From an uncultured Gammaproteobacteria bacterium (GTDB taxonomy: Bacteria; Patescibacteriota; Patescibacteriia; UBA2591; UBA6264): a stretch of DNA of 46,069 nucleotides. Shown here in pieces: positions 2,720 to 38,491 of the stretch. Below the pieces are notes generated by a model, which was not told where the DNA came from, did not search any database, and saw only the letters and a program-made list of their open reading frames with translations. Numbering within the stretch: position 1 is the first letter of the stretch; each line of letters starts with the position of its first letter. The translations under genes were made by a program, and so were the position numbers. The DNA lies in the NCBI GenBank assembly GCA_964531505.1, contig CAZHDT010000002.1:1-46069 (forward strand), read 5' to 3'.

Positions 2720-3328
2720 TTATTTTTTATTCTCAAGTTTTTCTAATGCTATAAACATAGCCATTTGAGAAACGCCAAAAATAATTGATAACTGCGAAGC
2801 CAATAATTGCTTCAATGTTTCTTTTGATATAGATTTTATTTTAGATAATAATTTTGTATCAAATGATTCTAATATTTGATTTTTTTCCAACTTCAATCTG
2901 TCTTCTGGTATAAGAAGGTATCCTGCAAAAATATCAGCTTGCTTGTCAATTCTTCTAATATTTTCCCTATAAGGTTTTTTTTCTTGAATTTCGCGAAAAT
3001 CATCCCAGTTTTTTATTCCAAAATTTTTATAAATATTTTTATGTAAAACAAAGTGTCCAATTTCGTGAGCGTAAGAAAATCTTAATCTATTTTTTTGAGT
3101 ATCATCAGAATAAATTTTTTCATCCACATAGATAGATTTAAAATTAGACATTATTATCATATCTATTCCGCGAAGATATTTTAGTCCTGGTGATAAGGCG
3201 ATAGTCATTTTTAGTTTCAGTTCTATAATGTCTTCCATTTCTACGGGAATGGAATTGTCTGAATATTTGGTTCTGAAATTATTCGCTATATTTTTAATTT
3301 TTTCGTTACTGAGATACAGAATTTCCAT
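2720..3328 (-). CDS. ImmA/IrrE-family zinc metallopeptidase (DUF955-like)
   Basis: 202-aa ORF with HEXXH motif in FSYAHEIGHFVLH. Immediately follows the XRE gene with a 0-nt gap, the classic ImmR/ImmA-type pairing. Confidence 0.8.
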   Translation of the reverse strand: MEILYLSNEKIKNIANNFRTKYSDNSIPVEMEDIIELKLKMTIALSPGLKYLRGIDMIIMSNFKSIYVDEKIYSDDTQKNRLRFSYAHEIGHFVLHKNIYKNFGIKNWDDFREIQEKKPYRENIRRIDKQADIFAGYLLIPEDRLKLEKNQILESFDTKLLSKIKSISKETLKQLLASQLSIIFGVSQMAMFIALEKLENKK

Positions 3329-3706
3329 TTAACTTTTTTTTATTAATTTTATTAATTCTTCTATATCTTTTTTGGTCATCTTTTCTTTTTTTATTGATCT
3401 AAAAAATGCCGGAAGATAGTTTGTAATATTTTCTTCTTTCATAATATCGGATGGGATTAAGCCCTGCGCTACTTGCGCATCGCTTATAAAATTTTTAATT
3501 TCTATAGCATTTGTTAATCCTAACGCTTCAGCCCATTTGTTTAATATTTTATTATTAGATGGGGGAGAGATTCTGCCTCTTTCTATTTTACTCCAATTAC
3601 TGGGGTCGTAATCAACCCTTTTACACATTTTTCTAAGAGTTAAACCTTTATTAATTCGCAATTCTTTTAATTTTTGACCAAATTTTTGTAAATTTTTATT
3701 CGCCAT
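3329..3706 (-). CDS. XRE-family helix-turn-helix transcriptional regulator
   Basis: HTH signature LKELRINKGLTLRKMCKRVDYDPSNWSKIERGRISP. I place the start at ATG 3706 (MANKNLQKF...) rather than the track's GTG at 3760, because a promoter and operator occupy 3743-3778. Confidence 0.8.
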   Translation of the reverse strand: MANKNLQKFGQKLKELRINKGLTLRKMCKRVDYDPSNWSKIERGRISPPSNNKILNKWAEALGLTNAIEIKNFISDAQVAQGLIPSDIMKEENITNYLPAFFRSIKKEKMTKKDIEELIKLIKKS

Positions 3707-3742
3707 AGTTCTTTTTTTATTTTTATTAATATATTGACCTCT

Positions 3743-3778
3743 GTGGTATAATAATACCACAAAGACAAGAAATTACAA
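3743..3778 (-). promoter_or_regulatory. Candidate promoter plus palindromic operator of the XRE-ImmA operon
   Basis: Minus strand reads TTGTAA (3778-3773), a 16-nt spacer, then TATTAT (3756-3751). The perfect inverted repeat GTGGTAT-AATA-ATACCAC (3743-3760) overlaps the -10. Confidence 0.5.
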
Positions 3779-9808: not shown

Positions 9809-11512
9809 ATGAATAAAAAATTTTATATCACAATCAACCGTAAAAAGATTTTGGCCTCACAAAGTGAAACTATTTTGAAAATTGCTCAAAAAAACGGTTT
9901 TGAAATTCCCAGTTTATGTTACCATTCTGATTTAACTCCAAAACAAAGTTGTGGCTTGTGTTTAGTAAAGATAAAAGGGATTAAGGATTTACAAAAGGCT
10001 TGTGTTACAGAGGTAAAGCCGGATATGGAAATTACAACGGATTCGTTGGCGATAAAAAAAGCGCGGCAAAAAAATTTGGAAAAAATATTTAATAGTCATG
10101 CTGAAGAATGTTATGATTGTGTTTGGAATTATCATTGCCAGCTTTTGGAATTGGTTAAAAAAATAGGCAAGAAAAAAGAAGGATTTATTAAAAAAGAAAA
10201 AAAACAACCGGTTTATCAATTTGGTCCAGCGCTTATTTATGACTCTCAAAAATGTTTTGGATGCGAAAATTGTGTTGAGGTTTGCGAAAATCAAAGCATT
10301 GGTTTTTTAGAAAAAAAGGTAGAAAAAGATAAAATTAAAATAGTCCCCAGTCAGGATCCCCGAAAACAATGTGTTTATTGCGGTCAGTGTTTAATCCATT
10401 GTCCAGCTGGCGCTTTTGAAGGAGTGGGGGAATTTGAAGATGTTGAAAAACCCTTGAGTCAAAAAAATAAAATAGTGGTCTTTCAAATCGCGCCTGCTGT
10501 TAGAACCGCTTTGGGGGAAGAATTTGATTTGCCTTTGGGAATTTCCGTTTTAGATAAGATAGTAGACGGTCTTAAAAAATTAGGCGCAGATAAAGTTTTT
10601 GATGTGAGCGTTGGCGCTGATTTTACTACCCTTGAAGCAGAAAATGATTTAAATAAAAAATTAAAGGACAGTCAAAATTTTTGTATTTTTAGTTCTTGTT
10701 GTCCTTCTTGGGTAAGGTTTGTGGAATTATATTTTCCTGAATATATTTCAAATTTAGCTCAAATTCGTTCCCCGCAAATAATTTTAGGCGGGTTGATTAA
10801 AACTTATTGGGCAAAAAAGCAAAAAATAAATTCTAAAGATATTTTTGTGGTTTCGGTTATGCCCTGCGTGGCTAAAAAATATGAAATTACTAGACCAGAA
10901 ATAATGGTTAATGGTTTTAAACCAGTAGATTATGTTTTAACTACTAGAGGATTAGCGCAACTTTTTAAAAAAAATAAAATTGATTTAAAAAATCTTAAAG
11001 GAGAAGAATTGGACAATCCCTTTAATGCGCCATCTGGAGCAGGAATTATTTATGGTATTAGCGGTGGAGTGACTGAAGCAATGGTTAGAATAAACACTCA
11101 TTTAAAGGGAGAAAAAAAAGATTTTTTAAAAATAAAAAAAATAAATTCCCATCGGAAGGAAATTGAATTTAATGTTAACAAACGAATTTTGAAAATGGCA
11201 ATCATTGACGGTTTGGGAGAAGCAAGAAAGGTTTTACAAGAAATGAAAAAAGAACCAGGGAAATATCAATGTTTAGAAGTAATGGCTTGTTCAGGAGGTT
11301 GTTTGGGGGGAGGTGGACAACCGCTGCCAACTAACGAATTAGTTAGAGAAAAAAGGAAAAAGGGTCTTTTGGGAATTGACCGACGAAGTAATAATAAAAA
11401 AGCAACTCAAAATAAGATAGTAAAAATTATTAATCAAGAATTTTTAAAAAATTTAAATCTTAGAAAAAAAGTTTTTAGGGTTGATTATTTTTCTAAAAGA
11501 AAAAATAAATAA
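9809..11512 (+). CDS. hydA: [FeFe]-hydrogenase catalytic subunit, clostridial M3-type domain layout
   Basis: N-terminal 2Fe-2S pattern CYHSDLTPKQSCGLCLV; His-ligated cluster HAEECYDCVWNYHC; two 4Fe-4S motifs CFGCENCVEVC and CVYCGQCLIHCP. H-cluster motifs are SSCCPSW, MPCVAKKYE and EVMACSGGCLGGGGQP. Confidence 0.88.
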   Translation: MNKKFYITINRKKILASQSETILKIAQKNGFEIPSLCYHSDLTPKQSCGLCLVKIKGIKDLQKACVTEVKPDMEITTDSLAIKKARQKNLEKIFNSHAEECYDCVWNYHCQLLELVKKIGKKKEGFIKKEKKQPVYQFGPALIYDSQKCFGCENCVEVCENQSIGFLEKKVEKDKIKIVPSQDPRKQCVYCGQCLIHCPAGAFEGVGEFEDVEKPLSQKNKIVVFQIAPAVRTALGEEFDLPLGISVLDKIVDGLKKLGADKVFDVSVGADFTTLEAENDLNKKLKDSQNFCIFSSCCPSWVRFVELYFPEYISNLAQIRSPQIILGGLIKTYWAKKQKINSKDIFVVSVMPCVAKKYEITRPEIMVNGFKPVDYVLTTRGLAQLFKKNKIDLKNLKGEELDNPFNAPSGAGIIYGISGGVTEAMVRINTHLKGEKKDFLKIKKINSHRKEIEFNVNKRILKMAIIDGLGEARKVLQEMKKEPGKYQCLEVMACSGGCLGGGGQPLPTNELVREKRKKGLLGIDRRSNNKKATQNKIVKIINQEFLKNLNLRKKVFRVDYFSKRKNK

Positions 11513-21275: not shown

Positions 21276-22283
21276 ATGTTTACAAAAAAAATTGGAATTG
21301 ATTTGGGAACAACCAATATTTTAGTTTATTTGCCAGATAAAGGGATTGTTACTAATGAGCCTTCAGTAGTAGCGATTTCCACTATTGATAAAAGTATTTT
21401 AGCAGTCGGAGATGAGGCAAAAGAAATGATTGGACGGACCCCGGATACGATTATTGCTCGTCGGCCATTAAAAGACGGCGTAATTGCTGATTATAAAACC
21501 ACAGAGGCAATGTTAAAATATTTTATTGGCAAAGTAGTTGGCCGTTTTAATATTTTTCGTCCAGAAGTAATGGTCGCGGTTCCAGGCGGGATAACTTCTT
21601 CAGAAAGAAGGGCGGTTGTTGATGCCACGATGAGGTCGGGAGCTAAGGCGGCTTATATTATTAAAGAACCAATTGCGGCGGCCATCGGTTCCAACATTCC
21701 CATCGGTTCGGCTTCTGGCCACATGATTATTGATATTGGAGGAGGAACAACTGAAGCAGCGGTAATTTCATTGGGAGGAATTGTTACTTGCACTTCTGTT
21801 CGGGTGGCGGGAAATAAATTTGACGCCGCGATCGCTAATTTTATTAAAAAAAAATATAATTTAGCAGTTGGAGAGAGAACTGCCGAAGAAATAAAAATTA
21901 AAATCGGCTCAGCCCTGCCCTTGGAAAAGAAATTAACTTTAGATATTAAGGGAAGAGATATGATTTTGGGTCTTCCGCGAATAATAAATATTAATTCAGA
22001 TGATGTTACAGAGGCAATTCAAGAAGAATTAAAAGCGATTGTTTTGGCGGTTAAATCGGTTCTTTATGAAACTCCTCCGGAACTTTCCGCTGATGTTATG
22101 GAAAAAGGAATGGTGTTGTCAGGAGGAAGCTCTTTATTAAGAAATTTAGATAAATTATTAACTAATGCAATCGGTGTTCCAGCTTATTTAGCCGACGAAC
22201 CATTGCTTTCTGTAGCGCGGGGAACCGGAATGGCTTTAGATAATTTGGAATCTTATAAGAGAAGCATCTTGGCCATGAAATAG
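21276..22283 (+). CDS. mreB: Rod-shape-determining actin homologue MreB (copy 1)
   Basis: IGIDLGTTNILVY...NEPSVVAI...DIGGGTTE...VLSGGSSLLRNLDKLL. Confidence 0.93.
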   Translation: MFTKKIGIDLGTTNILVYLPDKGIVTNEPSVVAISTIDKSILAVGDEAKEMIGRTPDTIIARRPLKDGVIADYKTTEAMLKYFIGKVVGRFNIFRPEVMVAVPGGITSSERRAVVDATMRSGAKAAYIIKEPIAAAIGSNIPIGSASGHMIIDIGGGTTEAAVISLGGIVTCTSVRVAGNKFDAAIANFIKKKYNLAVGERTAEEIKIKIGSALPLEKKLTLDIKGRDMILGLPRIININSDDVTEAIQEELKAIVLAVKSVLYETPPELSADVMEKGMVLSGGSSLLRNLDKLLTNAIGVPAYLADEPLLSVARGTGMALDNLESYKRSILAMK

Positions 22284-28904: not shown

Positions 28905-29942
28905 ATGTTCAAAAACTTTTTTGGTTTATTTTCGAAAGATATTGGATTGGATCTGGGAACAACTAATGTAAGGGTTTATGTAAGGGGAAAGGGATTAGTA
29001 ATTGATGAACCATCAGTTGTGGCAATCAATATGAGAAATGAACAAATTATTGCTATTGGTACGAATGCTTTGAAAATGATCGGTAAATCCCCTAGTCATA
29101 TTTCTGTAATTAGACCACTTGTCCATGGAATAATTTCTGATTTTGAGGTAACGGAAAAGATGTTGAAGTCAATTTTTGATAAAGTTCATCGTGATACTTT
29201 TACTCTAATTCCCAGACCAAGAGTGGTTGCTTCTATTCCTCTTGAGCTTACAGAAGTAGAAAAAAAATCTTTAGAAGATGCTGTTTTACAGGCAGGAGCG
29301 AGAGAGGTTTTTTTAGTAGAAAGACCGATGGCGGCGGCAATTGGCGTTCGACTTCCCATTCAAGATTCAATTGGTAATTTAATTGTGGAATTAGGAGGTG
29401 GACTTTCCGAAGTGGCAGTAATTTCTTTAAATGGGATTGTTTCTAAAAAATCAATGAAAATTGGTGGAGAGACATTAAATAAAAATATTATCAATTATGC
29501 TCGAGAAAAATTTGGTATTCTTTTGGGGGAACAAACTAGCGAGGAGATTAAATTAAAAATTGGTTCGGCTTTTAACAGTAAAAATCAGGAAATAAAAGCA
29601 AAGGGAAGAGATTTAGCCAAAGGATTGCCGAAGGAGATTAGCATTAATGAAGAACAGATTAGGGAGTCAATTATGCCGCTTCTTAAAACGATTATAGATG
29701 GAATCCACGAAACTATTGAAGCTACCCCCCCTGAATTAGTGGCGGATATTTACGAACGAGGAATTATTTTATCTGGTGGAGGAGCCCAATTAAGAGGATT
29801 TGATAAATTACTTCAAAAAAGAATTAATATTCCTATTATTGTTACTGATGACTCCGCTACGGCGGTTATCAGGGGAACCGGTTTAATTTTAGAAGATTTC
29901 AATAATTTAAAGCAAGTTTTTATTCCTTCTGCTAGAGATTAA
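28905..29942 (+). CDS. mreB: MreB/Mbl-family actin homologue (copy 2)
   Basis: IGLDLGTTNVRVYVRGKGLVIDEPSVVAI...ELGGGLSE...ILSGGGAQLRGFDKLL. An AGAGG Shine-Dalgarno-like sequence lies 8 nt upstream. Confidence 0.9.
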   Translation: MFKNFFGLFSKDIGLDLGTTNVRVYVRGKGLVIDEPSVVAINMRNEQIIAIGTNALKMIGKSPSHISVIRPLVHGIISDFEVTEKMLKSIFDKVHRDTFTLIPRPRVVASIPLELTEVEKKSLEDAVLQAGAREVFLVERPMAAAIGVRLPIQDSIGNLIVELGGGLSEVAVISLNGIVSKKSMKIGGETLNKNIINYAREKFGILLGEQTSEEIKLKIGSAFNSKNQEIKAKGRDLAKGLPKEISINEEQIRESIMPLLKTIIDGIHETIEATPPELVADIYERGIILSGGGAQLRGFDKLLQKRINIPIIVTDDSATAVIRGTGLILEDFNNLKQVFIPSARD

Positions 29943-33657: not shown

Positions 33658-33894
33658 ATTAATGAATTTTTATTATAATTATATTTATGCTATAATTATA
33701 GCAAATATTTGTTAAAAGGCAAGATTATATTTAAAAATAGAATAAAAGATTATTAACATTTTTTCCCCACGTTATTAACTAAAATAATTTTGTTTTTTCC
33801 GAAAAGATTGGTATGATGTATTCAAGATTAATTGATTATATTAAAACTGTAAATCTTAATTTAATAAAAGTTAATAATATTTTTTGATAAATTT

Positions 33895-35265
33895 ATGACT
33901 GAAATGGATAAAAAAGAACTTTGGAATGTTGTTTTATCAGAGTTAGAGCTTTCTATTTCAAAAGCCAATTTTAGAACTTGGTTTCAAAATACCTCTATTA
34001 TTGATCTTCAGGATGATGATGAAACGGTCCTTGTGGGAGTCCCAAATAACTTTTCTAAAAGTTGGTTGGAGAAAAAATATCATCGTTCTATTCTTGAAGC
34101 CCTGCAAAGGGCCAGTGATAATAAAGTAAAAAAGATTTTTTATAAAGTTGACTCATCTCCGGTTCAGACAAAATCACTTCAACCTATAAAAATTAATTTG
34201 GATAATCTATTAATAAAAGAAAAACCAGTTTCAACAAATTGCCAAGGTTTAAATAATAATTATACCTTTGAAAATTTTGTCGTTGGGAAAGGATCGGAAT
34301 TGGCTCATGCCGCTTGTCAAGCGGTTGTTAAACAACCTGGAGAAAAATATAATCCTTTGTTTATTTATGGCGGAGTGGGTTTAGGTAAAACTCATTTATT
34401 GCAGGCAGTGGGTCATGCAGTTTTAAAGAAAAAACCAAAAGCCAAGGTCCTTTGTACTAATGCAGAAAAATTTACTAATGAATTCATTAGGGCAATTGGC
34501 GACGGAACAATTGATAAGTTTAAAAAATTTTATCGAGGAGTGGATTTACTTTTAATCGATGATATTCAGTTTATGGCCGGAAAAGAACGGACCCAAGAGG
34601 AATTTTTTCATACTTTTAATAGTCTTTATCAAGAAGAAAGACAAATTATTATTACATCTGATCGAACCCCCAAAGATATTCCAGCTTTAGAAGATCGGTT
34701 GATTTCTCGCTTGGAGTGGGGGTTAATTGTTGATATTAATCCTCCTGATTTAGAAACCAGAATGGCGATATTAAAAGCTAAATGTGAAAAAAGGAAAGTG
34801 GTTTTTAATCAAGAAGTTATTCGATATTTGGCCACTCATATTCAAAGAAATATTAGAGAATTAGAAGGAGCGCTTAATAAATTAATCGCTTATCAGGAAC
34901 TTCATCAAGTTGATTTAAATATTGATTTGGTTAAAACCATTTTAGTTAGTTTAGAATCAAGTGAAAAAAAGAGTTTGGTTCAGCCAAAAGAATTAATTGA
35001 AATTGTAGCTAATTTTTATGGCGTACCTGTTAGAGATATGATAAGCGCTTCAAGAAAAAGAGAATTAGTGGTACCCAGGCAAGTAATGATGTATTTAATG
35101 AGAGAAGAAATTAATGCGTCGTTTCCTTTAATTGGTAAAGAATCAGGGGGGAGAGACCACACTACGGCGATGCATGCTTATGAAAAAATTAAAAATGAGT
35201 TGGAAAAAAATAGTAGAATTAAACAAGAAATTGATTTAATTAGGCAAAGATTGTATAACAAATAA
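33895..35265 (+). CDS. dnaA: Chromosomal replication initiator DnaA
   Basis: LWNVVLSELELSISKANFRTWF, Walker A GGVGLGKTHLLQA, LLIDDIQF, and C-terminal DNA-binding GGRDHTTAMHA. Confidence 0.96.
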   Translation: MTEMDKKELWNVVLSELELSISKANFRTWFQNTSIIDLQDDDETVLVGVPNNFSKSWLEKKYHRSILEALQRASDNKVKKIFYKVDSSPVQTKSLQPIKINLDNLLIKEKPVSTNCQGLNNNYTFENFVVGKGSELAHAACQAVVKQPGEKYNPLFIYGGVGLGKTHLLQAVGHAVLKKKPKAKVLCTNAEKFTNEFIRAIGDGTIDKFKKFYRGVDLLLIDDIQFMAGKERTQEEFFHTFNSLYQEERQIIITSDRTPKDIPALEDRLISRLEWGLIVDINPPDLETRMAILKAKCEKRKVVFNQEVIRYLATHIQRNIRELEGALNKLIAYQELHQVDLNIDLVKTILVSLESSEKKSLVQPKELIEIVANFYGVPVRDMISASRKRELVVPRQVMMYLMREEINASFPLIGKESGGRDHTTAMHAYEKIKNELEKNSRIKQEIDLIRQRLYNK

Positions 35266-35269
35266 TAAA

Positions 35270-36136
35270 ATGGATATTATTAAAAATTCGGGTAAAAGGG
35301 TTAAGTTTAATCCAATTAAAGTGAAACAGACCTGTTTAAGGGCTGGTGCCAGCCAAATTTTATCTGATGAAATTGTGGAAGAAGTAAGTCGTCGAGTCTA
35401 TTCTGGAATGAAAACCTATGACATACTAAAACTGATTATTAATCTTTTAAATAGAAAGAATCCGGCAGTCGCTGCTCGATATAGTTTAAAAAAGGCGATG
35501 ATGGATTTGGGTCCGGCTGGTTTTATTTTTGAAGAATTTATTAAACGTTTATTAAAATCTTATCATTGCCAGGCTTATTTCCCCCCCTTAATTCAAGGAG
35601 AGTGTGTTAAACACGAGGTGGATATTATTGCCAAATTACCAAAAGAAGACAATCGGTTAACCAGAATACCTCTTAGTCAAGGGAAACTATATATGATAGA
35701 ATGCAAATATCATAACACCCCTGGTTTGAGAAGTAATTTAAAAGAGACGCTTTACGTTTGGGCAAGATTTCTTGATTTAAAGGAAGTTTATAAATTTAAT
35801 TACCAAGAAAAAATAAATTATCCTTGGCTTATTTCAAATACTAAATTTTCAATTGAAGCAATTAAATATGCTAATTGTAAAAATATGAGACTTTTAGGAT
35901 GGAAATATCCTCGGGAAGCGAGTTTGGAAAATTTAATTGAAGGTCAAAAATTTTATCCAATAACGATTTTAAAATCTTTGGACCAAAATACGAAGGGGAT
36001 ATTTTTTTCAAAAAATATAATATTAGTTCGTGATTTAATTTCCAATTCGGTTAAAACTTTAGAAAAAAGGCTCGGATTGACGGGAGGTAAACTTGAAAAA
36101 TTAATTAGCGAAGCAAAATTGATTATTAATAGTTAA
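35270..36136 (+). CDS. ATP-cone domain fused to a PD-(D/E)xK (Mrr-like) nuclease domain, uncharacterised
   Basis: N-terminal ATP-cone-like IIKNSGKRVKFNPIKVKQTCLRAG...VAARYSLKK. Central GFIFEEFIKRLL...HEVDIIA...YMIECKYH (D...ExK). C-terminal LGLTGGKLEKLI is HhH-like. There is a 4-nt gap after dnaA and a 3-nt gap before pilB. Confidence 0.65.
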   Translation: MDIIKNSGKRVKFNPIKVKQTCLRAGASQILSDEIVEEVSRRVYSGMKTYDILKLIINLLNRKNPAVAARYSLKKAMMDLGPAGFIFEEFIKRLLKSYHCQAYFPPLIQGECVKHEVDIIAKLPKEDNRLTRIPLSQGKLYMIECKYHNTPGLRSNLKETLYVWARFLDLKEVYKFNYQEKINYPWLISNTKFSIEAIKYANCKNMRLLGWKYPREASLENLIEGQKFYPITILKSLDQNTKGIFFSKNIILVRDLISNSVKTLEKRLGLTGGKLEKLISEAKLIINS

Positions 36137-36139
36137 AAT

Positions 36140-37843
36140 ATGTTAGATTTAAACGATTTATTGGATCCAAAAAAGAAAATGCCATCTATTGCTTCTTCAG
36201 AAAATCAAGAAGAATTAAGTTTTAAACTTAACGATATTAAAGTTAAAGAAATAGAAGAAGAAATATCTTATCAAGCAAGACAAATCGGTGTCCCTTATAT
36301 TAATTTATTTGATTTTCCAATTTCTCCAGAAGCTTTAAGTTTAATTTCTCAAGAAGAAGCAAAAAATTATCGTTTAATTTGTTTTTACAGGACTGAACGT
36401 GAAGCAAAATTGGCTTCACCTAACGTAGAAAATCCCGCTTTAGCCGAATACCGGCAACAATTGGAAGGCGCTTATGGGATTAAAACAGAAATATATTTTA
36501 TTTCAGAGCATAGCTTTCAGACAGTTTTAAAACGTTATGCTTTTTTACCCAAAATAAGCAAAGTTACTAAGGGAGTTGAAATTTCATCGCAAGATTTAGA
36601 AGATTTTCAAAAAAAGATTAAAAATTTTCATGATTTAAATCAAGAAATTCAAAATACCAAGGTTTCCGATTTAATTATTTTAATTATGGCCAGTGCGGTT
36701 CAATCACGAGCTTCCGATATTCATATTGAAGCAGAAGAGGAAGGCATCAAAGTGAGGTTTAGAATAGACGGAGTTTTAATTGATGTTGCAGAAATAAATA
36801 AAAAATATTGGTCACAAATTGTTTCCCGAATAAAATTGATATCAAATTTAAAAATAAACATAGTAGATCAACCTCAAGATGGGAGATTTACCATTTATAT
36901 AGAGAAAGATAAAACAGATGTTAGAGTTTCCTGTTTACCTACAAGTTATGGAGAAAGTGTGGTAATGAGACTTTTACGGTCTTCTACAGCCAGTTTAAGT
37001 TTTGAAGAATTAGGATTAAGAAAAGAGCCTTTTGAAGTTTTAAAAAGGCAGATAGAAAGGCCAAACGGCATGGTTATCACCACCGGGCCAACTGGTTCAG
37101 GGAAAACCACCACTCTTTATGCAATTTTAAATAAATTAAATACCCAAGAGACTAAAATTATTACTTTAGAAAATCCAATAGAATATCGTTTAAAAGGAAT
37201 TAATCAAAGTCAGGTTGATAAGGCAAAAGAATATACTTTTGCTACCGGGCTTCGTTCAATTCTTCGCCAAGATCCGGATGTGGTAATGGTTGGAGAAATT
37301 AGAGATTTAGAAACTTCTGAAATTGCGATTCAGGCTGCTTTAACAGGACATTTAGTGATTTCTACTTTACACACCAATGACGCGGCTGGCGCTTTACCAA
37401 GATTTCTTTCTATGGGAGTAAAACCGTTTTTGTTGGCCCCGGCGATTAATGCGGTAGTTGGCCAACGTTTGGTAAGAAAAGTTTGTCCTGATTGTAAAAA
37501 GGAAATAAATATTGAAAATTCTAAAATGGAGAGAGTTAGAACACTTTTATTAGATTTGCCAGAGAAATCAGAAATAAAAGTTGATTTTAATAATCTTAAA
37601 TTTTATCAAGGAGGAGGCTGTGAATCTTGTCATGGGTTAGGATATAAAGGAAGAATCGGTATTTATGAAGTTTTTACCATTGATTCTGAAATAGAAAGAG
37701 AAATTCAGGCTGGTAATTTATCAGAATACACAATGCGAGATTTAACTAAAAAACAAGGAATGACGACCATGGCTCAAGATGGAGTTTTAAAAGCTTTGGA
37801 CGGAATAACAACAATTGATGAGGTTTTTCGCGTTGCGGAGTAG
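36140..37843 (+). CDS. pilB: GspE/PilB-family type IV pilus / type II secretion ATPase
   Basis: Walker A GPTGSGKTTTLYA, Asp box/Walker B RQDPDVVMVGEIRD, His box TGHLVISTLHTND, tetracysteine CPDCKK...CESCHGLGYKGRIGIYE. Confidence 0.9.
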   Translation: MLDLNDLLDPKKKMPSIASSENQEELSFKLNDIKVKEIEEEISYQARQIGVPYINLFDFPISPEALSLISQEEAKNYRLICFYRTEREAKLASPNVENPALAEYRQQLEGAYGIKTEIYFISEHSFQTVLKRYAFLPKISKVTKGVEISSQDLEDFQKKIKNFHDLNQEIQNTKVSDLIILIMASAVQSRASDIHIEAEEEGIKVRFRIDGVLIDVAEINKKYWSQIVSRIKLISNLKINIVDQPQDGRFTIYIEKDKTDVRVSCLPTSYGESVVMRLLRSSTASLSFEELGLRKEPFEVLKRQIERPNGMVITTGPTGSGKTTTLYAILNKLNTQETKIITLENPIEYRLKGINQSQVDKAKEYTFATGLRSILRQDPDVVMVGEIRDLETSEIAIQAALTGHLVISTLHTNDAAGALPRFLSMGVKPFLLAPAINAVVGQRLVRKVCPDCKKEINIENSKMERVRTLLLDLPEKSEIKVDFNNLKFYQGGGCESCHGLGYKGRIGIYEVFTIDSEIEREIQAGNLSEYTMRDLTKKQGMTTMAQDGVLKALDGITTIDEVFRVAE

Positions 37844-37857
37844 TTAAATTATAAAAT

Positions 37858-37893
37858 AAAAACTTGGAAGCTGAGCTTCCAAGTTTTTATTTT
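37858..37893 (+). terminator. Strong rho-independent terminator after pilB
   Basis: AAAAACTTGGAAGC-TGA-GCTTCCAAGTTTTT followed by ATTTT. 14-bp stem. Confidence 0.85.
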
Positions 37894-38014: not shown

Positions 38015-38491
38015 ATGGAACTTAAAAAAGACGTTTTTCAATCAGGAAATGACCAAGAAAAAAAGCCAGTGTTCTTAGAAAAAGAAGGAGTTAGTAAAAT
38101 AGAATCTCAAAACGGTTTTTTTACTGGTTTAGAAAATCAGTTAACACAAATTTCTAATTTAGAAGAGAAAGAACAAATTATGGGCTTTATTAAAGAGTTG
38201 AAAGCGCAATGTTTTGATTATCTCAAAATTCTTGAAGAATATCGTTTAGCGGAAAAAAATTTTGATGACGCGCGCGTGGGAGATTTAGATGATAAAGAAA
38301 ATGCCCGCCTTGCCTTAAATGCGAGAACTCAAGATAGAATAAGTAAGAAAAGTGTTATTTTAGATAATATGAATATTGTAAATCGTCTCTTTACCAGTTA
38401 TGGATTGGAATGTTCTTGGTACCGCGGATTTGAAAATGAAGAACAGTTTGAAGGCTGGGTGATTAAAAATGTTCAGGAATTAGAAAATTAA
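38015..38491 (+). CDS. Hypothetical protein (acidic, helical-looking, no signal peptide)
   Basis: 158-aa ORF with its own promoter-like element. No motif I recognise. Its 3' end overlaps the 3' end of valS by 12 nt (convergent). Confidence 0.5.
   Translation: MELKKDVFQSGNDQEKKPVFLEKEGVSKIESQNGFFTGLENQLTQISNLEEKEQIMGFIKELKAQCFDYLKILEEYRLAEKNFDDARVGDLDDKENARLALNARTQDRISKKSVILDNMNIVNRLFTSYGLECSWYRGFENEEQFEGWVIKNVQELEN

Follow-up and report, generated by a model that had tools for sequence, protein, structure and literature searches.

An ATP-cone joined to an AF1548/Mrr-type nuclease, encoded between dnaA and pilB in one Patescibacteria clade, is a member of a widespread uncharacterised family

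The stretch of DNA analysed (hereafter the window) comprises 46,069 nt of contig CAZHDT010000002.1 (assembly GCA_964531505.1). The subject of this report is an open reading frame (ORF) at positions 35270..36136 of its forward strand, which specifies a 288-residue protein joining an ATP-cone to a predicted nuclease; the protein and its family are referred to here as X. The gene starts 4 nt after the stop codon of dnaA and ends 3 nt before the ORF of an ATPase of the PilB/GspE family (pilB), and a terminator-like hairpin closes the three genes (Table 1). The coordinates, the spacing, the co-directional packing and the identity of both neighbours proved to be exactly those given in the original prediction, which had been made from the sequence alone, and the single strong terminator it described was also recovered: direct folding of the hairpin yielded -24.6 kcal/mol (z = -9.0), and 0/200 shuffled sequences folded equally well. 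A consensus terminator scan missed this hairpin because its A/T-extended stem uses up the T-run. The PilB-type ATPase scored under the NCBIfam equivalog cut-offs for both PilB and GspE. It had been described as a lone pilus motor at a locus lacking dnaN, and this was borne out: when the window ORFs were scanned, neither dnaN nor any PilC, PilM-Q, pilin or Com family was found among them, making the ATPase the sole pilus-type gene found, and a six-frame search of the window returned no prepilin motif of the G-F-T-L-I-E type. The remainder of the window is housekeeping DNA of the kind found in the chromosome of a small-genome bacterium, with genes for EF-G, L20, RecO, Tgt, aminoacyl-tRNA synthetases (aaRS), two MreB paralogues, SMC, RNase III, NusB, HolB, RRF, TsaD and TsaE, among others.

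Table 1. Positions in the window of X, its predicted modules and the other features discussed
Feature	Position	Strand	Evidence or remark
dnaA (456 aa)	33895..35265	+	TIGR00362, 536 bits (cut-off 344); Bac_DnaA, E 1.1e-69
X (288 aa, ATG start)	35270..36136	+	ATP-cone / AF1548-type PD-(D/E)xK nuclease / AF1548-like C-terminal domain
X, ATP-cone module (residues 1-73)	35270..35488	+	PF03477; Foldseek matches to NrdR/RNR cones; profile alignment to the A. aeolicus NrdA cone
X, PD-(D/E)xK nuclease core, Mrr/AF1548-type (residues about 80-228)	35507..35953	+	1Y88, E 1.6e-32
X, predicted catalytic codon E88	35531-35533	+	
X, predicted catalytic codon D118	35621-35623	+	
X, predicted catalytic codon E144	35699-35701	+	
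X, predicted catalytic codon K146	35705-35707	+	
X, AF1548-like C-terminal helical (HhH/SAM-like) domain (residues 229-286)	35954..36127	+	PF22357; presumed DNA binding
PilB/GspE-family T2SSE ATPase (567 aa)	36140..37843	+	PF00437, E 5.5e-125; MshEN domain
Intrinsic terminator-like hairpin and T-run	37858-37893	+	Closes dnaA-X-pilB
XRE-type helix-turn-helix protein and IrrE/ImmA-like M78 peptidase	2720-3760	-	Adjacent pair
[FeFe]-hydrogenase large-subunit-like protein (567 aa)	9809-11512	+	Fe_hyd_lg_C, 2Fe-2S and 4Fe-4S domains
MreB, first paralogue	21276-22283	+	Full-length
MreB, second paralogue	28905-29942	+	Full-length
AT-rich spacer upstream of dnaA (237 bp)	33658-33894		
ORF past the terminator (158 aa)	38015-38491	+	Without Pfam family

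The N-terminal module of X had been read as an ATP-cone, the allosteric sensor of ATP and dATP in ribonucleotide reductases (RNRs) and in NrdR. Over residues 1-73 it scored 33.4 bits with PF03477, for which the gathering cut-off is 25.8, and it covered positions 1-81 of the 88 in this profile; its best sequence match, found by profile alignment, was the cone of Aquifex aeolicus NrdA. An AlphaFold2 model with 32 homologues as input reached a pLDDT of 91 (>90 for residues 1-80) and a pTM of 0.88, a value that predicts a fixed interface for the cone, and contained the beta-hairpin and four-helix fold of a cone, which Foldseek matched to the cones of NrdR and RNRs (e.g. 7p37 and 9gex) with a probability of 1.00 and an rmsd of 1.9-2.0 Å over 79-80 residues. 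For the nuclease, residues 89-287 matched AF1548 of Archaeoglobus fulgidus (PDB 1Y88; phmmer, E 1.6e-32), and the same structure was the top Foldseek match of the whole model (TM-score 0.83, normalised to the target), followed by a long series of RNR and NrdR cones; the ligand-gated or type IV nucleases VC1899, Cdn1 and MspJI appeared as weaker matches. Window X gave no match to Mrr_cat (PF04471) even at E<=1, a miss that reflects a limit of sensitivity and not exclusion from the superfamily, since relatives within the family do match this profile. The C-terminal domain covered the full profile of PF22357 (AF1548-like_C; residues 229-286, E 5.7e-11, profile positions 1-56 of 56), formed four helices in the model and probably binds DNA; the glycines of its 'LGLTGGK' segment were not conserved in a 32-sequence alignment. 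Neither a signal peptide nor a membrane segment was found in X, nor any match to Zn_ribbon_NrdR, the cone being N-terminal and the nuclease placed after it. At the level of domains it is secure that X combines an ATP-cone with an AF1548/Mrr-type nuclease whose motif is intact. The three modules of the original prediction were there to be found, with two amendments: the PF04471 match of the Mrr-like core is seen in relatives and not in window X, and the tail likened to a helix-hairpin-helix (HhH) is a helical module in which the canonical HhH motif is not kept.

Conservation was counted over 86 X-family sequences from many phyla. Eight nuclease residues were invariant in all 86 (E88, E116, D118, E144, K146, R166, D169 and N190). 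Three of them, D118, E144 and K146, are the D...ExK residues that had been singled out at the start, and they align with D38, E51 and K53 of AF1548, which Yooseph et al. (2007; PMC1821046) predicted to be catalytic; the Glu of helix 1 (E88) is in register as well. The invariance of the PD-(D/E)xK positions argues, at the level of sequence, for retained catalysis. Conservation of the cone was also high (K5 in 83, G8 in 85, K17 in 84, T/S49 in 85 and Y71 in 83 of the 86, with K/R74 near-invariant). Some of these fall in the K-R-x-G motif, the helix-1 Lys and the helix-3 Thr, which we take, from RNR structures, to be the nucleotide-contacting positions. At the Arg position of the canonical K-R-x-G motif, the cone of window X has Asn and 51/86 relatives have Ala. 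Taken together, these counts indicate purifying selection on both modules of the family. A Cys/His metal site (C22, C112, C145, H148, C203), hinted at by the 32-sequence alignment, was discarded: C22 is mostly Leu in the family, and C145 is Ala in 20 of the 86 sequences.

These data bear directly on the idea that X might be a catalytically silent, nucleotide-responsive DNA-binding regulator. The combination of an ATP-cone with a DNA-binding module follows the logic of NrdR, the cones of the two proteins superpose, and in one locus X adjoins NrdR and an RNR. However, the effector of X is a nuclease fold with catalytic positions invariant in 86/86 sequences and not a repressor domain, the cone is N-terminal with no Zn-ribbon, and no operator-like repeats were seen, although no search was aimed at them; a silent regulator is thus highly improbable. 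Comparison with the other parent families gave a similar picture of likeness in the parts and difference in the assembly. The cone of X belongs with those of class I, II and III RNRs in PF03477 and keeps their Lys, Gly, Lys and Thr positions, but it replaces the K-R-x-G Arg, and RNRs make deoxynucleoside triphosphates (dNTPs) whereas X is predicted to degrade nucleic acid. AF1548 shares with X 33% identity in the structural alignment, the D...ExK residues and the C-terminal helical domain; unlike X, it has no ATP-cone, and it is a structural-genomics protein with a predicted nuclease role (PMC1821046).

The fusion is not confined to the window. A word-indexed protein search with X returned 566 clusters, nearly all of 265-300 aa and with the same three domains, and a HMMER scan of 1.84 billion representatives returned 358 clusters (50% identity) at E<=1e-30 and 728 at E<=1e-10; at least 597 loci in the GTDB species-representative genomes encode X. 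The phyla concerned include Patescibacteria, DPANN, Hadarchaeota, Bathyarchaeia, Altiarchaeota, Bacteroidota, Actinomycetota, Dependentiae and Chlamydiota. When the nuclease half (residues 86-288) was used as the query, nearly all homologues bore the cone; a minority of about 200-220 aa lacked it and were AF1548-like, and no alternative sensor domain on the AF1548 core was found among these homologues. Judged from these searches, the X fusion is a widespread uncharacterised family, known to databases as 'ATP cone domain-containing protein' (other names in use are 'restriction endonuclease' and 'Holliday junction resolvase'), and it is not unique to this locus. The literature consulted, searched under several names for an ATP-cone/nuclease fusion, provided no functional characterisation and nothing beyond the 2007 prediction for AF1548 (PMC1821046). 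Of the claim that the architecture had not been characterised, the functional part holds; that it might be special to this locus does not, given a large family that databases already name.

In a neighbour-joining tree (no support values), the X sequences of Bacteroidota and of Actinomycetota formed coherent clades, and the clade of window X stood apart from the main Saccharibacteria/Paceibacteria cluster. This picture points to mostly vertical descent with occasional inter-domain transfer. In the same tree, again with no support values, the window clade (with loci L001, L002 and L081-L090) nested among archaeal sequences of the Aenigmatarchaeota/Archaeoglobaceae type, which suggests inter-domain transfer of its X. 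Copies on plasmids were rare (2/72,556); none was found in GenBank phages (0/50,697) or, by pattern search, in IMG/VR, the only PHROG matches were RNR cones, and the viral structures matched covered separate domains only. With taxon-coherent clades, near-absence from plasmids and absence from the phages searched, X behaves, as far as sequence distribution tells, like a housekeeping gene.

This distribution weighs on the reading of X as a solitary, type IV-like (Mrr-type) restriction or abortive-infection nuclease, in which the cone would sense a phage-caused disturbance of the nucleotide pool and free DNA cleavage. Its core does lie in the Mrr/restriction-endonuclease superfamily, and many relatives match PF04471 and are named 'restriction endonuclease'; the fold has weak matches to MspJI and to the ligand-gated VC1899 and Cdn1, and no cognate methyltransferase accompanies it, as would be expected for a type IV enzyme. 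The resemblance to the PD-(D/E)xK effectors of CRISPR and CBASS (Card1/Can2-like VC1899, 1XMX; Cdn1, 9U49) extends to the plan of a small-nucleotide sensor fused to a nuclease of the restriction-endonuclease fold. That similarity is at the level of fold only (E about 1e-2), and X differs in having an ATP-cone instead of a CARF or SAVED sensor and in having no signalling-synthase partner, but these effectors provide a useful model of a possible mechanism. Other features of Mrr-type enzymes are missing: X has no Mrr_N-type reader domain for modified DNA, and neither methyltransferase nor defence genes recurred beside it in about 90 loci, none of which had defence-island neighbours. No family in the PADLOC-DB v2 models matched X at E<=1 (0 families). 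Defence genes are typically patchy and mobile in their distribution, in contrast to the stable housekeeping synteny and taxon-coherent clades of X. A restriction or abortive-infection function is therefore unlikely, and the defence role initially suggested for X, with neither a PADLOC match, nor a methyltransferase or defence-island context, nor phage copies, is not upheld.

The position of X between dnaA and pilB was analysed in the same manner. Within the window clade the order DnaA-X-PilB was kept in all the members examined, i.e. six metagenomic relatives whose X was 48-60% identical to that of the window, and two GTDB genomes. The gap between X and pilB measured 2-52 nt and that between dnaA and X 4-190 nt. 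X was the least conserved of the three proteins in these genomes, the identities being 59-73% for DnaA and 62-74% for PilB. The conservation extends well beyond the three genes, with a whole 12-kb block being syntenic (MreB-SMC-RNase III-NusB-L32, then DnaA-X-PilB, then class I aaRS-TsaE). Since this block includes divergently transcribed genes, the conservation of dnaA-X-pilB is not specific to the triad. Outside the clade the arrangement was lost. In 80 genomic loci of X (with at least 2 kb of upstream sequence in 65/80 and of downstream sequence in 69/80), tblastn with the window DnaA and PilB found neither gene within 8 kb in 77/80; the only loci with both were those of the two closest relatives. 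Linkage to dnaA and pilB as a property of the X family was thus ruled out, contrary to the conserved linkage that had been expected among homologues. Linkage centred on PilB was ruled out too: none of 18 PilB relatives from metagenomes (39-61% identity, including three truncated fragments) had X or DnaA in the flanks fetched, and the 15 loci at 39-53% identity likewise bore neither of them nearby. One of the clade loci, L001 (CAZMJP010000012.1), bears this Patescibacteria-type DnaA-X-PilB block (DnaA and PilB 66-67% identical) under the label 'uncultured Gammaproteobacteria'; it is near-identical to L084 and is probably a mis-binned or mislabelled contig.

The tight spacing of 4 nt and 3 nt, the single terminator in the window, the short X-pilB gaps and an order maintained down to 48% identity of X could all be taken to mean that dnaA-X-pilB is a dedicated unit in this clade, X either processing DNA imported by a PilB pilus or coupling initiation at the origin to dNTP supply. 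Against this, the synteny embraces the divergently transcribed SMC, RNase III, NusB and L32 genes and the downstream aaRS and TsaE genes, the dnaA-X gap varies from close packing to nearly 200 nt, almost all the X loci outside the clade lack both partners, and PilB relatives at <=53% identity do without X and DnaA; moreover, no other pilus or competence gene was found in the window, and X itself has no signal peptide or membrane segment. The association of X with dnaA and pilB is a lineage-specific synteny in one Patescibacteria clade, the place of window X being part of that syntenic block, and there is no evidence in the present analysis for a dedicated dnaA-X-pilB system, which is quite unlikely. 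The option of replication control put forward at the outset retains the clade-specific adjacency to dnaA and nothing further.

No single neighbour was common to the whole family in the 80 loci, but some recurrent associations emerged. In the chromosome of Cyclobacterium lianum (locus L030, 8001-15451), X is followed by genes for a beta-CASP/metallo-beta-lactamase (MBL) nuclease, the start of which is overlapped by the X stop, a 'putative thymidine phosphorylase' (TP), a ribose-phosphate diphosphokinase (PRK07199) and a P-type ATPase. The TP-family protein scored above the cut-off of TIGR02645 and just below that for AMP phosphorylase. The identical order of four genes, overlapping or abutting, was found on plasmids of Pontibacter actiniarum (L113, 1972-6597) and Criblamydia sequanensis (L114, 1137-13886), in the latter case flanked by genes for a P-type ATPase, phosphoketolase, glycogen phosphorylase (GlgP) and acetate kinase, and a shuffled form occurred in six more Bacteroidota loci. 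Window X is 33-36% identical to the first gene product of this cassette, an orthologue-level relative; none of the partners (beta-CASP, TP-family, phosphoribosyl pyrophosphate (PRPP) synthetase) was found in the 46-kb window. In Bradyrhizobium diazoefficiens, the MBL-fold/PRPP-synthetase/TP-family triad is part of the core proteome induced by microoxia (PMC6515984), which hints at an energy-stress module. Judging by its gene content, the four-gene cassette looks like an undescribed module for nucleic-acid/pentose catabolism or energy stress.

A second association was seen in a Bathyarchaeia metagenome-assembled genome (L023, 88-3500), where genes for ribose-1,5-bisphosphate (R15P) isomerase and AMP phosphorylase precede X on one strand, both products scoring above the NCBIfam equivalog cut-offs (TIGR00511, 397 > 314; TIGR03327, 610 > 535). 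The archaeal pathway that degrades nucleoside monophosphates (NMPs) begins with these two enzymes, AMP phosphorylase and R15P isomerase. In Patescibacteria loci L012 and L021, X is abutted by a LOG-type protein of TIGR00730, a family that includes nucleotide 5'-monophosphate nucleosidases. The AMP-phosphorylase/R15P-isomerase/RuBisCO pathway has been documented in CPR (Candidate Phyla Radiation) and DPANN organisms (PMC5113843; PMC6389311), and its CPR, DPANN and archaeal range overlaps that of X; an AMP-phosphorylase-type gene accompanies X in a Bathyarchaeia genome and in Bacteroidota and Chlamydiota. This pathway has no assigned nuclease, and the window has no gene of the pathway. A RuBisCO motif scan over all the loci gave no match. 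In one DPANN clade X lies between DJ-1/DUF498 and thioredoxin reductase with thioredoxins, and in the DPANN-type contig L112 (6001-10463) its gene immediately precedes those of NrdR, a class II RNR and glutaredoxin. Thioredoxin/RNR linkage was ruled out as a general feature of X, being limited to a single DPANN clade (L016, L109-L112). At the end of the L112 locus there is a second RNR with an ATP-cone, such that three different ATP-cone proteins are encoded within 7 kb.

X could also be considered a structure-specific nuclease of DNA repair or recombination, similar to XPF/Hef or to Holliday-junction resolvases and tuned by its cone to dNTP availability. A helical domain of the DNA-binding type does follow the restriction-endonuclease-fold core, 'Holliday junction resolvase' is the JGI name of some members, and, besides dnaA in the window, a gene resembling family-4 uracil-DNA glycosylase (UDG), as read from its translation with no family scan, lies next to X in nine Patescibacteria loci. 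However, no structure of XPF, Hjc or NucS figured in the 50 best fold matches, the link to UDG and the link to dnaA each come from a single lineage, and genes of recombination or repair were not seen to recur beside X; a repair function seems improbable.

The explanation preferred here is that X is a cytoplasmic, stand-alone protein in which an N-terminal ATP-cone sensor would control an AF1548/Mrr-type endonuclease. Nucleotide binding, gating, a substrate and a physiological role are what we infer for X, and its mechanism would most probably run in three steps. The cone would bind adenine (deoxy)nucleotides; binding would alter the oligomeric or conformational state of the protein, as it does in RNRs and NrdR; and this change of state would start or stop the cleavage of nucleic acid. 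Gating of the nuclease by the cone is suggested by the analogy with RNRs and NrdR and by the strong conservation of both modules. X would then be a gated entry step upstream of enzymes that cleave NMPs. The reading tentatively adopted, with a likelihood somewhat short of even, is that of an adenine-nucleotide-gated nuclease by which nucleic acids are turned over under control and the products passed to nucleotide catabolism or salvage. The role in turnover and salvage is not placed higher because it relies on guilt by association in four to five lineages, none of these associations being present in the window. The salvage option of the original prediction finds independent backing in the neighbourhoods of other phyla. 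In the window clade itself, the tight coupling to pilB may mean that X handles DNA taken up. A broader version, in which the whole family is the gated entry nuclease, with an RNR-style ATP/dATP switch, for the salvage of nucleotides and pentoses from cellular or imported nucleic acid in CPR, DPANN and energy-stressed Bacteroidota and Chlamydiota, and is wired to PilB uptake in the window clade, is doubtful. In this version the NMP-cleaving enzymes supplied by X would be AMP phosphorylase with R15P isomerase, the LOG-type nucleosidases and the beta-CASP/TP/PRPP-synthetase module.

Several points weigh against the turnover-and-salvage reading. In most of the 80 loci X is surrounded by housekeeping genes that are unrelated and specific to the lineage (MnmA, MltG, UDG, ABC transporters, MsrA), links to nucleotide metabolism being present in perhaps 10-15 of about 90 loci from 4-5 lineages, a count made without a whole-genome chance baseline; beside window X there is no nucleotide-catabolic gene. 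Of the two basic residues in the canonical K-R-x-G motif, the second is absent from the cone, and both nucleotide binding and the identity of the ligand are putative. The nuclease function of the X family, like that of AF1548, is itself predicted. The presence of an HhH-like domain in an endonuclease points to double-stranded DNA as the substrate and to oligonucleotides, not NMPs, as the products, while the beta-CASP partner resembles RNases (aCPSF1/Cas14-like), so that the substrate of X could also be RNA. Finally, the cassette could owe its make-up to a low-energy stress regulon that its genes share instead of to a pathway.

X-type proteins are an uncharacterised variant on two themes, ATP-cone allostery and ligand-gated PD-(D/E)xK nucleases. 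To our knowledge, ATP-cones control only RNRs and the repressor NrdR; a cone-gated nuclease, if true, would extend this form of allostery from the synthesis of deoxynucleotides to the degradation of nucleic acids. The family is concentrated in CPR and DPANN organisms with reduced genomes, for which a life on scavenged nucleotides is assumed; it bears on how this scavenging is regulated. The question is experimentally tractable because cultured carriers have been identified (C. lianum, P. actiniarum and C. sequanensis) in which X heads the compact four-gene cassette. For annotation, the message is that the adjacency of X to dnaA and pilB should not be taken as functional evidence.

Some further observations concern the rest of the window. 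The spacer upstream of dnaA has no cluster of Escherichia coli-type DnaA boxes; allowing one mismatch, 17 such boxes occurred window-wide against 12.7 expected, with no cluster at dnaA, and the scan is uninformative as to an oriC signature. An origin in this spacer, if there is one, would have diverged DnaA boxes. The ORF directly past the terminator is matched at the same site by an ORF of 28-34% identity in several relatives from the clade (L001, L083-L085), and it shares the 12 nt at its 3' end with the convergent aaRS gene. The MreB paralogues are 6.6 kb apart, the second adjoining SMC inside the clade-conserved syntenic block. The [FeFe]-hydrogenase-like protein is encoded amid an otherwise minimal housekeeping region. 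Towards the start of the window, the gene for the XRE-type protein forms a pair with that of the M78 peptidase, an arrangement typical of the derepression modules of prophages or integrative and conjugative elements, or of stress switches.

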